Part shown: piece after piece, positions 12,645 to 44,773 of the stretch | Layout: every line of letters starts with the position of its first letter | How positions within the stretch are numbered: the stretch's first letter is position 1 | DNA from: Eledone cirrhosa | Taxonomy: Eukaryota | Length of the DNA stretch: 64,000 nt | Direction: 5' to 3' | NCBI GenBank assembly: GCA_964016885.1 | Contig: OZ024750.1 | Location: forward strand, 27,156,001 to 27,220,000 | The notes under the pieces: model-generated | Told to the model about the DNA's origin: nothing | Databases searched by the model: none | What the model saw: the letters and a program-made list of their open reading frames with translations, nothing else | Position numbers and translations under genes: made by a program

Positions 12645-12779
12645 CATGTCGAGATGGAACATTTGGTATCGGTTGTAAAATGTCATGTCATTGTTCGAAC
12701 AACACTTTCTGTGACAAGCAAGATGGAAGATGTTCAGATGGGTGTAGTGCAGGTTATCTTGGTGACGACTGCCAACAAA
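12645..12779 (+). CDS. EGF-like exon E0 ([45 protein letters not shown])
   Basis: tttcag|...|gtattt; 135 nt; phase 1-1; 8 Cys. Confidence 0.9.
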
Positions 12780-42700: not shown

Positions 42701-44773
42701 TTTATACTGTAAATAATATATGTATTATATTTTTATTTTTATTTTTATCTTTATTTTTATTCTTATTATTCTTATTATTCTTATTTATATTTATACTCTT
42801 AATAAGGGTTAGTTTGTGCTTGTATTGATGGATATGTGTATTGATATATGTGTATATATGTGTACATACGTATATGTATATATATGTGTGTATATTGGAC
42901 CTTGTAATATTATTATTATTATTATCATTATCAATTATATTATATTATATTATATTATATTATATTATATTATATTATATTATATTATATTATATTATAT
43001 ATAGTACAATAATTCCCGCTCTATATCACCACCTTTGTTTAGCTTTAGTTTTTGCATTGGACTATATTTGTAATATGGTTCAAAATGTTATTCACTTCCT
43101 TAGCAATTTTTACTCGATAATTTTTACCCGATAATTTTCCTATGCTTTAATGTATGTACACTCCATATCCTTCTGAGTTTTTGGCGTGTATTGGCCGATA
43201 GTGCTTCTTATAGCTTTAGTTGCCCTGATGAGTCCTGAATAGGACGAAACATTGTTGGGTAGTAAAGACATTAGATGTATTGAAGGCTTCTTTGGTTTAT
43301 TTTCATAATTCTTCGGCTCTGTTTAATTACATTGAGCTATACCTTTACTGTCATTTCTATAATACGAAGAGGGTGTTTAACACCAACACACTCTAGTATT
43401 TTAATTCTTATATATATATATATATATATATATATATATATATATATATATATATATATATATATATATAAAACTACATACATATGTACATACATTTACG
43501 TATGTGTATAACTATAGATTTATAGATTTGTATATATGCATGCATTTATGTTTAAGTGTGTGTGTATATGTGAGTTGATTTATATTTTTTGGGGTAAGGA
43601 GAACATTTTGTCTCTAGATTTTATTACCTAGGGAGATTAACTACAACAGTGTTTCCTCCTCATCAAACACCAACGCCGGCCTGTATCTGTATACATGCGT
43701 GTGTATGTTCGTATGTATGTATAAGTATTTACCCACAACTTTCATCACTATTGCTACATTTTCCTGTCATTTCTGTTCATGTTGTTCTTGTAACTTTTGT
43801 CATAATTGAGTAGCCCTTAGTTTCATTTTCTTTGATTTCTTTCGTTTTTTCTTTTATCTCTCTAAGCAATTCGTTGACAAGCTTCTTTTATTTATTTTTT
43901 TCGTTTTCTTCATTCAGATGCGTCCACACTGGCTGTCTCAGAGACGTACAAATATGGCTTATAAATTTACCAAAGTAAAGAGCCTTCCGGCGCCCCCAAA
44001 CTTCAAACTCCTACCTAACGGCCCATGCTCCCTAATGACCCATTGCTCCGAAACGCCCCCGAGTGTTCCTATGCCCCCTGTTGAGAACCTTTTGGTTTAG
44101 ACAGGTATCATATTGTATTGTATAATAAAAATCATCGATTTGGCCGAAGACCAAACAATTCCAATGGGGATGTAATTGTTTAAAACTAACGCAGGATAAA
44201 CAGATAATTTGAGCACAATTCAAGGACACATATTTTAGGGCGAGCTAGATGTAAATATATCAAGGTCACTACTCATAGAAAGTTTGTCAGGGACGAAAGA
44301 ATGTAAGTCAAGTTTCTACTGAATGAGATATAAACTGTGTATGTGAAAGGATATATGTCATTACAACATGTCATTAAGAAAAGCGCGCTACAGCCTCTGC
44401 TAACCAAAACATTTCGGAAATTAAATAATATCCTAATTATGAAGAAACCAAATGTAATATTCTATTATAGCTTTTCACTACTACATTAGTCCATCTCAAA
44501 CCCCTCTGGAGATAATTTCCTGTTTAATAACTGTATAATTTACTGGAGTTGGGGTTTACTAACTGTATTCCTTTTCTGTTGTTGTTTAGGGTGAGATCAA
44601 AGAAACGTTCCAGGCATCACGGTGATGATAGTAAAGACGACAGCGTTGTTGATGATGACGATTATGATGATGATGATGACGATATTGATGATAATGATGA
44701 ATCCGATAATGATGATAATGATGATAATGATGATGCCGATAGTGATGATAGTGATGATGCCGATAATGTTTAA
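12645..44773 (+). CDS. Gene 1 (5'-partial): type I membrane protein with 11 EGF-like modules, one TM helix and an acidic cytoplasmic tail; MEGF10/11-, SREC- or CED-1-like ectodomain; about 587 aa within the window
   Basis: 13 exons with AG/GT boundaries and compatible phases: 11 phase 1-1 exons, then a phase 1-2 exon, then a phase 2 terminal exon. No stops at the junctions. Total 1763 nt plus 1 nt from an upstream exon. Confidence 0.85.
14160..15600 (-). mobile_element. R4/Dong-clade non-LTR retrotransposon, 5' half, decayed and interrupted by a SINE
   Basis: [13 protein letters not shown]...GYM..M..HW.E.HP...[10 protein letters not shown]-terminal motif and KKELRA...RRY...NKRF..NQ..VY motif, as recalled for R4/Dong ORFs. 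Confidence 0.65.
14883..15070 (+). mobile_element. Octopus-type tRNA-derived SINE
   Basis: B-box-like ttcaaatccc followed by the core aactttgcctttcatcct..ggggtcgataaaataaagtaccagt, recalled from octopus genomes. Confidence 0.7.
15990..18200 (-). mobile_element. R4/Dong-clade non-LTR retrotransposon, 3' half (RT, CCHC, restriction-like endonuclease), frameshifted
   Basis: [34 protein letters not shown]...HVMNNC...RHD, RPD...VVEVSCP. Confidence 0.9.
18745..18876 (+). CDS. EGF-like exon A1 ([43 protein letters not shown])
   Basis: gttcag|...|gtatat; 132 nt, one codon shorter with frame kept; 8 Cys. Confidence 0.9.
19052..19186 (+). CDS. EGF-like exon B1 ([45 protein letters not shown])
   Basis: tttcag|...|gtatat; 135 nt; 8 Cys. 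Confidence 0.9.
19558..19712. repeat. Minisatellite with 16-20-bp unit (AAGT)ATGTCTCTCTGTATGT, about 8 copies
   Basis: Seen directly in the sequence. Confidence 0.9.
21845..21892 (+). ncRNA. Hammerhead ribozyme, U3-A8 variant
   Basis: AACAT-TTGAAAA-GATGG..CCATC-GAAAC-CG-GTC-ATTTT; ACCGGT palindrome; one stem I mismatch. Confidence 0.7.
22712..22846 (+). CDS. EGF-like exon A2 ([45 protein letters not shown])
   Basis: tttcag|...|gtatat; 135 nt; 8 Cys. Confidence 0.92.
23031..23165 (+). CDS. EGF-like exon B2 ([45 protein letters not shown])
   Basis: tttcag|...|gtatgt; 135 nt; 8 Cys. Confidence 0.92.
23408..25070 (-). mobile_element. Penelope-like 3' fragment (linker, GIY-YIG, 3' UTR) carried inside the exon-duplication unit; partial copies at about 26068-27118, 28026-28130 and 31734-32370
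   Basis: [36 protein letters not shown]; near-identical copies after each B exon. Confidence 0.85.
25328..25462 (+). CDS. EGF-like exon A3 ([45 protein letters not shown])
   Basis: tttcag|...|gtatat; 135 nt; 8 Cys. Confidence 0.92.
25620..25754 (+). CDS. EGF-like exon B3 ([44 protein letters not shown])
   Basis: tttcag|...|gtatat; 135 nt; 8 Cys. Confidence 0.92.
27372..27506 (+). CDS. EGF-like exon A4 ([45 protein letters not shown])
   Basis: tttcag|...|gtatat; 135 nt; 8 Cys. Confidence 0.92.
27664..27798 (+). CDS. EGF-like exon B4 ([44 protein letters not shown])
   Basis: tttcag|...|gtatat; 135 nt; 8 Cys. Confidence 0.92.
28147..30752 (+). mobile_element. 5'-truncated Penelope-like element (601-aa ORF 28336-30141: RT YRDD plus GIY-YIG)
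   Basis: [31 protein letters not shown]...CPLKGNC, IVY...YIG; inserted at a (TA)n tract inside duplication unit 4. Confidence 0.92.
31056..31190 (+). CDS. EGF-like exon A5 ([45 protein letters not shown])
   Basis: tttcag|...|gtatat; 135 nt; 8 Cys. Confidence 0.92.
31360..31494 (+). CDS. EGF-like exon B5 ([45 protein letters not shown])
   Basis: tttcag|...|gtgtat; 135 nt; 8 Cys. Confidence 0.9.
35530..36520 (-). mobile_element. Degenerate Penelope-like fragment (Neptune-like)
   Basis: [35 protein letters not shown]. Confidence 0.75.
36681..36777 (+). CDS. Transmembrane exon ([33 protein letters not shown])
   Basis: ttttacctttgaacag|...cag|gtatgt; 97 nt; phase 1 in, phase 2 out; hydrophobic stretch of about 24 residues. 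Confidence 0.85.
37905..38025. repeat. Palindromic repeat of about 120 bp (related copies at about 11988-12086 and 8117-8175)
   Basis: ataggaaaatgtttaaccccgacggcagagctcaagcc...ggcttgagctctgccgttggggttaaacattttcctat. Confidence 0.8.
38418..38503 (+). ncRNA. Hammerhead ribozyme with canonical core and extended stem II
   Basis: ACCTT-CTGACGA-GAGTCT..AATGGAT-GTTC-GTAA-GGAC-T-ATCCATT..AGACTT-GAAAC-CGTACG-GTA-AAGGT. Confidence 0.88.
38723..41434 (+). CDS. Penelope-like element ORF, intact: reverse transcriptase plus GIY-YIG endonuclease (about 900 aa; Naiad-like motif set)
   Basis: Motifs SLKNIP, ADKT, LKDHK, FDIDAYY, MGSSDS, YRDD, CNC-x5-CPL-x-GNC, IVY...YIG, CNLC. No stops. The likely start is the ATG at 38723 or 38747; the ORF-track start at 38642 runs through (TA)n. 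Confidence 0.92.
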   Translation: MKIYIFDSMLTKSYLPLSLKNIPIPSRNTYEKLLITSVNSFVKRIRWRAFHYDINSNRTDPKHRTHFNNFGFKTYKSPPHNVLLVNFENDLLSLVKNIKYRPYNRHGNYNKFDRFQSRLKNIVKGFRANKYILVPADKTKDLYSMDYSAYRDFIYKELHINYKKTTQDNLNHINSEGLKIVSVLGLDKYTQPYYPREPRFTLKDHKIDFISNPSVRLICPSKSDIAKISKKILDLIIPDVREKVNFNLWGNTKEVIDWFSGIDKLESSRFIQFDIDAYYTSISPILLNKALMLAIRVSSLTRSQVDIILAARRTIINFEDTFWTRKNTPNNFDVTMGSSDSAQITDLVGLFLLNELYVTFPHLKGGLYRDDALFVINSSTNNVEHNKKKLYKFFKSYNLSITIDRNDRAVNFLDVTLDLVTNSFKPFHKPNEILSYVSPNSNHPKSMISSIINGVSNRISTLSKDVGTFNAHAEYYNNALANSGYSGKIHYNNSNLRKSPLTYNNNNIISHNMAMNGSRKHKNRRNHIGVSEPIHKLRHRTRNRESNTSRNQVEPSERSLSGNAFAKSNSNSVVSTDPIISPNPFDMFPDSSRYTNGRNRKRLNGVSADSNNVVLTSPCSNSNLNKGILDNGRVGKDKNRRRLNTYFNPPYNQEVLTNIPRSFFSILEKNFPPTNKYHSIFNKNVIKLSFSTTPNISSHLASTNNGKIRDGYSSLRTTSLNRSINTLPPEQTLSHSNPTSDTSLLQPINSTRNCNCRVSANCPLNGNCLSKNIVYACVVKTNSSNSTYIGSTSNTFKTRFNSHISNFKHVKFKNSTSSAHHIWDLKGANIPYSLNWRIVARSNNLSTHTKFCNLCILETHSIIFSRETLLNRKSEIFSSCPHAISNSYFYYKPKGSSSVNCIH
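43214..43267 (+). ncRNA. Hammerhead ribozyme with canonical core, in the Penelope 3' region
   Basis: TTGCC-CTGATGA-GTCC-TGAATA-GGAC-GAAAC-ATT-GTT-GGGTAG; stem I has a bulge. Confidence 0.85.
44590..44773 (+). CDS. Terminal exon: basic juxtamembrane segment plus Asp-rich tail ([61 protein letters not shown])
   Basis: ttttctgttgttgtttag| acceptor. Phase 2 matches the TM exon (AG|G = Arg). The K/R cluster fits the positive-inside rule. TAA at 44771-44773. Confidence 0.7.

Follow-up and report, generated by a model that had tools for sequence, protein, structure and literature searches.

A clustered family of multi-EGF receptor genes in the cephalopod Eledone cirrhosa that changes fastest in its transmembrane exon

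Receptors of the CED-1/Draper/MEGF10 class carry tandem epidermal growth factor (EGF)-like repeats and one transmembrane (TM) helix in type I topology, and their hallmarks are an N-terminal EMI domain and cytoplasmic NPxY and YxxL/ITAM (immunoreceptor tyrosine-based activation) motifs (PMC8092387). SCARF1 and SCARF2, the two members of scavenger receptor class F, which is also marked by binding of modified LDL or polyanions, likewise have a leader, a tandem EGF-like rod and a single TM helix; both bind in trans via their EGF repeats (PMC6242819), and SCARF1 has a large cytoplasmic part (PMC11563577). Among molluscs, the galactose-binding-domain (GBD)-MEGF receptor tyrosine phosphatases are represented by Octopus sinensis P0001 and P0002 and by SudRes1 of the snail Biomphalaria sudanica, where EGF number varies between haplotypes (PMC12297450). 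In B. glabrata, LG5R subgroup 1A comprises clustered single-pass genes with a leader, Tie2/SCARF-type EGF repeats, a TM segment and a small domain-free tail, with lectin- and phosphatase-bearing relatives nearby (PMC13712769), and clusters of this architecture lie under schistosome-resistance peaks in two snails (PMC13712769, PMC12297450). Here we analyse a 64,000-nucleotide stretch (the window) of the 3.0-Gb genome of Eledone cirrhosa (assembly GCA_964016885.1, contig OZ024750.1, here C10; C10:27156001-27220000), in which positions 12645..44773 hold an EGF-array gene (the focal gene). This gene belongs to a clustered family whose strongest diversification is found in the TM exon, unlike the ectodomain focus of an earlier, sequence-only reading of the window.

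The cluster shares its EGF-TM layout with the CED-1/Draper/MEGF10 receptors but differs from them at both ends. Pfam EMI matches occur only on contigs C1 and C4 of the genome, and an EMI-bearing protein gave no match to C10 cluster DNA in which the EGF exons had been masked. Neither NPxY nor YxxL is present in the 60-aa tail exon of the focal gene, and the tail has no ITAM. An engulfment receptor of this type, signalling via its own tail, would fit the similar cysteine spacing and the relatives that carry database names such as 'protein draper'; the missing EMI domain, the missing tail motifs and the grouping of the EGF units with those of lectin-MEGF phosphatases refute membership in the class and make such an explanation very improbable. 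Judged from its exons, the focal gene is not a CED-1/Draper/MEGF10 member. The SCARF proteins are closer in outline, and the EGF profile matched a SCARF1 chain (8HNA, E 1.3e-7) and a Tie2 chain (E 1e-4) in the PDB. They differ from the Eledone family, which is large and variable, with a 61-aa tail in the focal gene and tails of 20-78 aa overall.

The molluscan proteins offer the nearest comparisons. The GBD-MEGF receptor phosphatases contain the same 44-residue, 8-Cys unit, whereas the C10 cluster has no F5/8 lectin or phosphatase exon in the 1.26 of its 1.53 Mb examined, has another leader and tail, and uses only the long unit type. The sequence-only reading had proposed MEGF10/Draper/SREC-like cysteine spacing in a candidate undescribed receptor family. 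The likeness in spacing stands, but the closest kin by unit scores and tree are the molluscan lectin-MEGF receptor phosphatases, and the architecture is already known from snails as LG5R subgroup 1A (PMC13712769). Unlike LG5R 1A and 1E, the genes described here are from a cephalopod, number about 37 in two clusters, have one exon per unit and 2-30 units, and show strong positive selection on the TM exon. The words 'positive selection', 'octopus' and 'cephalopod' are absent from the main text of PMC13712769, and no octopus or cephalopod description of the family was found in the literature, supplements and subscription papers being outside the scope of that search. Independent loss of lectin and phosphatase and orthology with the snail genes are equally possible.

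The focal gene and its family

Eleven EGF exons of the focal gene lie in the window (12645-31494), each with AG/GT ends, phase 1-1, 8 Cys and no stop; 10 of the 11 are 135 nt long and one is 132 nt. The TM exon (36681-36777, 97 nt) and the tail exon (44590-44773) join in frame to give a 61-aa tail that includes the junction Arg. These features uphold the earlier description of 11 symmetric, 8-Cys exons of 132-135 nt with phase-compatible TM and tail exons. The tail length of about 61 aa also stands, but Asp makes up 30 of the 60 residues encoded in the tail exon, half rather than most of them. The leader exon lies 3.6 kb upstream of the window (match C10:27152368; exon ~C10:27152420), and a twelfth EGF exon, the first in order, lies 0.3 kb upstream (~C10:27155656); all 12 EGF exons are intact. 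The splicing pattern is predicted from the following features:

12645..12779 (+): EGF exon 2 of 12; a paralogue 300 kb distant has an exon that differs by 1 nt
18745..18876 (+): EGF exon 3, 132 nt long, opening an A/B exon pair
19052..19186 (+): EGF exon 4
22712..22846 (+): EGF exon 5
23031..23165 (+): EGF exon 6
25328..25462 (+): EGF exon 7; differs by 2 nt from an exon-9-like unit class common to a paralogue 1.15 Mb away
25620..25754 (+): EGF exon 8
27372..27506 (+): EGF exon 9; a paralogue 1.15 Mb distant has an exon that differs by 2 nt
27664..27798 (+): EGF exon 10
31056..31190 (+): EGF exon 11
31360..31494 (+): EGF exon 12, canonical 8 Cys, final one before the TM exon
36681..36777 (+): TM exon, ~9-aa stalk and 21-aa hydrophobic helix, phase 1-2, hypervariable among paralogues
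44590..44773 (+): tail exon, a basic stop-transfer stretch and then an Asp-rich run from a GAT-type repeat

Beyond the first pair, the EGF exons form A/B pairs copied as blocks, and the youngest blocks (exons 7-8 and exons 9-10) are 97% alike over 991 bp. A chance origin of the array was ruled out by 100 block shuffles, none of which contained the 8-Cys pattern that occurs 11 times in the window. Assembly duplication was rejected as its source because the units differ and carry different insertions.

Genome-wide searches with the TM, tail and leader exons, together with examination of 1.26 of the 1.53 Mb of the C10 cluster (20 of 20 leader-to-TM spans complete; C2 cluster read in part), placed the family in two clusters, at C10 25.8-27.35 Mb and C2 310-315.6 Mb. 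There were 37 TM-exon matches (all scored; 20 on C10, 16 on C2 and 1 on C1149), 40 leader-exon matches, with 40 of 52 candidates scored, and 38 tail-exon matches (all scored). This count rules out a single-copy conserved orthologue. In 17 of the 20 C10 genes, leader, TM and tail exons occur together in order. Intact EGF exons number 15, 5, 12, 7, 10, 4, 4, 7, 3 and 4 in C10 genes 1-10 and 3, 3, 2, 4, 30, 23, 12 (focal gene), 13, 5 and 9 in genes 11-20, a total of 175. With 2-30 intact exons per gene, the proposed tandem duplication and variable ectodomain length are borne out. In two C2 genes that were read completely, the intact units number 2 and 4. Among the 137 standard C10 EGF exons, 112 distinct units were found, and the nearest neighbour was in a different gene for 86. 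This distribution fits exchange of EGF exons between copies, with whole-gene duplication accounting for part of the neighbour count.

Several loci depart from the common gene plan. At C2:310463019 and C2:310643902, a leader and a single EGF exon are followed by the next leader before any TM exon; these loci are either partial duplicates or small secreted forms. Genes 11-13 of C10 (26.53-26.69 Mb) have a dead first-exon donor and a common stop in the exon preceding the TM exon, and their TM exons are still in frame and divergent despite the lack of a tail match. At C10:27238679-27251634, within the paralogue that follows the focal gene, a 2.56-kb two-exon unit is repeated about five times with identical proteins and is a very recent expansion.

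Replacement change in the TM exon

The TM exons read (30 of 37 loci) share a mean amino-acid identity of 39%, yet all 30 are in frame and none of 630 helix residues is charged. Stalk and helix carry the change, and hydrophobicity, a starting Tyr and a mid-helix Pro are mostly retained. The proportion of non-synonymous differences (pN) exceeded that of synonymous differences (pS) in 418 of 435 exon pairs; 15 disjoint pairs gave pN 0.25 and pS 0.11, with an intron distance of 0.045. Four codon models fitted on the exon tree estimated the ratio of non-synonymous to synonymous rates (dN/dS) at 5.1-10.1 for the whole exon and 4.5-9.6 for a 22-codon core, and all models rejected dN/dS = 1 for both (p<=7.5e-13). 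Estimates were still higher when fitted on the intron tree. An alignment or hydrophobicity artefact was rejected as the source of the signal by the value of 4.0 obtained from 15 gap-free exons and by 12 simulations in which only hydrophobicity was constrained (dN/dS 0.6-1.2). Selection estimates here derive from short alignments with recombination among copies.

For the 20 C10 genes, the tree of the TM exon has a length of 2.94 changes per nucleotide; the trees of its 3' intron and of the leader exon measure 0.58 and 0.145. The TM exon is thus the fastest-changing part of these genes, at about 5 times the adjoining intron and about 20 times the leader exon, and its change exceeds that of the ectodomain. 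In the focal gene, the TM exon differs by 18-40% of bases from 17 copies whose adjoining intron differs by 3-5%. The leader exon is nearly invariant across the 20 C10 genes, and its dN/dS was uninformative (p=0.34).

Variation in ectodomain sequence, which the sequence-only reading had also proposed, is borne out by the distinct units described above and by a dN/dS of 1.7 for the EGF exons (p=1e-6; 2.3 without Cys codons), estimated from 114 unique exons among the 137, with exons of other length or Cys number excluded. In 57 disjoint pairs of EGF exons, pN was 0.068 and pS 0.047 (p=0.003). Such variation raises the prospect of allorecognition or cell identity, roles that the sequence-only reading had named beside an immune one and in which variable ectodomains on facing cells would bind each other. 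The mosaic units, the ectodomains of 2-30 units, the EGF dN/dS above 1 and the trans binding of SCARF1 and SCARF2 through EGF repeats (PMC6242819) are in keeping with such a role. However, the strongest signal lies in the membrane, out of reach of facing cells, and the tip of the ectodomain, the first exon, is conserved or often dead; we regard this explanation as improbable.

Stalk exons, tails and neighbouring features

In C10 genes 1-13, the exon preceding the TM exon lacks a GT donor (e.g. C10:26034709), and the seventh Cys is gone from it in 9 of the 13. Codons 32-38 of this exon show fast, near-exclusively replacement change in genes 1-10 (p=9e-5; region chosen by eye). This pattern puts the hot spot of change at the membrane. 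A phase-1 GT at codon 39 is retained in 13 of 13, and in 10 of 13 its context matches one found in only 3 of 137 ordinary exons. We infer that splicing may use this GT as an upstream donor, leaving out the partner Cys and producing a variable stalk; alternatively, the exon may be the terminal exon of a secreted form. The focal gene has no such converted exon.

Of the 38 tail loci, 30 were read. Four, which all stand at the end of the C10 cluster, have long, acidic tails (60-78 aa); the majority of the non-acidic tails are 20-22 aa long. All tails read have the upstream intron and acceptor in common, and an inverted neighbour gene has, by eye, a short-type tail start followed by an Asp run with an early stop. 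Because of this shared intron and acceptor and the short-type start of the inverted neighbour, the acidic tail is best read as a recent replacement by a GAT-type repeat. The acidic tail is not a mark of the family as a whole: among the tails read, it is a derived trait of 4-5 adjoining copies that replaces a 22-aa tail. The stop codon of the focal-gene tail lies 5 codons earlier than in three acidic sister copies. Since triplet slippage preserves frame anyway, the open frame does not allow a function of the Asp run to be inferred. A second, short-type tail in the focal gene was considered and rejected.

The short tail has a dN/dS of 0.44 (17 loci, p=0.046). Most short tails (loci L045-L070) end in Thr-x-Ile, a putative class I PDZ-binding motif. 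In two C2 tail copies, a stop after 3 residues also makes a donor-like site.

The second tandem paralogue with a signal peptide, placed about 10 kb past the stop by the earlier reading, begins at 54745, 9.97 kb past the focal-gene stop. Its features in the window are:

54745..54808 (+): signal-peptide exon, 64 nt, phase 1, almost unchanged among 20 genes
58485..58547 (+): first EGF exon, 5' half, one Cys lost
58548..60225 (no strand): ~1.7-kb insertion breaking the first EGF exon
60226..60304 (+): first EGF exon, 3' half

The insertion has direct end repeats of about 330 bp (86% alike) and a 7-bp target duplication, and no further copy was found in the part of the C10 cluster examined. The second EGF exon of this paralogue has lost its AG acceptor; beyond it lie 13 exons that are intact, followed by a TM exon and an acidic tail.

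Two intronic open frames of the focal gene (28264-30141 and 38639-41434, +; 625 and 931 aa) are 41% alike and carry putative Penelope-type reverse transcriptase and GIY-YIG motifs; they have no Pfam match. The first intron in the window contains a near-perfect 595-bp tandem duplicate (5000-6185, 99.8%), which is very recent or an assembly slip.

Origin and possible role

The top protein matches come from O. sinensis. Among 190 proteins, the best per-unit matches were O. sinensis lectin-MEGF proteins (59.5-64.7 bits; the rest <=51.6), with a phosphatase domain in three of the top four, and the 44-residue unit is 64-68% identical to units of P0001 and P0002. In a weakly resolved 44-column tree with many open forks, four P0001 units are placed among the cluster units; a grouping of the cluster's first EGF exon with the first post-lectin unit involves a long branch and is no more than suggestive. 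The 1.26 Mb of the C10 cluster examined contained no F5/8 lectin or phosphatase exon. Hidden extra domains were rejected there as well, the single match after EGF masking being judged retroelement-like. Genome-wide, lectin matches lie on C2 and C17, none of 25 phosphatase matches falls inside either cluster, and phosphatase-like and lectin matches occur together on C2 at 257-262 Mb.

An EGF-lectin-EGF locus (C2:315459914-315564852) stands at the end of the C2 cluster, with a TM exon 47 kb on and then a tail exon encoding 12 aa. Its DNA matches the focal gene in the TM 3' intron (E 2e-26) and the tail exon (E 2e-37). In the intron tree, this locus is one of the two that lie farthest out, and the C10 genes group together, weakly supported (78/76). 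It is a possible link to the ancestor, and the unit and exon comparisons make descent from a lectin-bearing ancestor likely. Searches for homologues turned up no close relative, which is weak evidence: a first-EGF-exon profile had 3 matches among 367 candidates, none from octopus, and a C2 lectin exon matched 0 of 40. Neither a leader nor a tail profile matched above 4 bits among the 190 proteins.

From the demonstrated parts (exon anatomy, two clusters, variable exon number, no lectin or phosphatase exons, TM replacement excess), we give roughly an even chance to the proposal that these genes are expressed and encode surface receptors or decoys without catalytic activity that serve in host defence, and whose membrane anchor is driven to change by an antagonist acting there. 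The focal product would be a single-pass surface protein with a leader, 12 eight-cysteine repeats, a membrane helix and a short, enzyme-less tail. Its origin may have been a molluscan lectin-MEGF(-phosphatase) gene that shed lectin and phosphatase. Symmetric exons would then have been gained, lost and exchanged via unequal crossing-over and gene conversion, and dead exons may be skipped in frame. The repeats could make up a rod tied by disulphides and, like SCARF1, bind to microbial or altered-self surfaces. Because the tail lacks NPxY and YxxL as well as any catalytic domain, signalling, if any, would pass through a partner. An arms race with a parasite or pathogen is the likely cause of the fast change of the TM exon, and the selecting agent may grip or cut stalk and helix, as Vpu acts on the tetherin helix. 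Tetherin/BST-2 is under positive selection inside its TM helix (PMC2633611); it is a functional analogy only, being an unrelated protein encoded by a single gene across species, with a known viral antagonist.

Several observations weigh against this host-defence proposal. Of the 213 EGF-like pieces in the C10 cluster, 38 are either broken or splice-dead, and the genome-wide tail search gave no match for genes 11-13, so part of the family is decaying. Transcription and splicing of the family are predicted from gene sequence, and the selection signal by itself names no agent. In pairs picked for intron closeness, pS exceeds intron distance, so introns may have been homogenised; gene conversion of this kind could inflate the contrast between exon and intron, a concern eased by a tree-based dS estimate of ~1.1, near the intron tree length of 0.98. 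As to ancestry, we infer, rather than observe, that the C2 lectin exons and the TM exon 47 kb away form one gene, and the TM profile scored 4.5-5.2 bits against the phosphatase relatives, which establishes no TM or tail similarity. Among public proteins, none carrying the leader, the first EGF exon or the tail of this family turned up, a weakly informative negative that gives the proposal no support from other species.

The same broken pieces, together with insertions inside exons, nonsense tails in some copies and splicing that is itself a prediction, would be expected if most of the repeats had no function and the array were a segmental duplication in decay, with gene conversion or mutation bias imitating selection. 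Against this, 175 EGF exons are intact, TM exons stay in frame and hydrophobic in 30 of 30 despite their divergence, the leader is nearly invariant, the short tail is constrained, and a neutral simulation fails to reproduce the TM signal. We hold it to have only a slight chance of being correct.

The TM helix might instead be an internal pairing code, with each helix picking a membrane partner, which could be itself, a paralogue or one of the related receptor phosphatases. Duplicates would then be pushed apart to avoid cross-talk, and a family member would be a catalytically empty subunit tuning a phosphatase. Stalk and helix do change within a retained frame of hydrophobicity, initial Tyr and mid-helix Pro, contig C2 carries related phosphatase genes as well as the second cluster, and dimer control has been proposed for such phosphatases (PMC12297450). 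On the other side, the helices offer no charged residue for adaptor pairing, and a tree-wide dN/dS of 4-10 better fits repeated turnover than a one-off divergence after duplication. We consider a pairing code unlikely, although less so than the other alternatives, and favour change driven by an antagonist at the membrane.

The elements that appear to be new here are the full C10 exon census, the apparent exchange of exons, the derived state of the acidic tail, the converted stalk exon of other copies and a lectin locus with a shared TM-tail cassette. Little is known about pathogen recognition in cephalopods. The architecture held in common with snail schistosome-resistance clusters suggests that variable surface proteins of this class occur across molluscs. 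It is unusual for positive selection to be this strong within a membrane helix, and its presence there points to an interaction within the bilayer or at it. Tentatively, the roughly 37 cephalopod receptors might hold their specificity in anchor and stalk rather than in the ectodomain, as a diversifying intramembrane code on a rod of interchangeable exons. If so, the driver would be a membrane-embedded parasite or viral antagonist, or pairing with phosphatase co-receptors.

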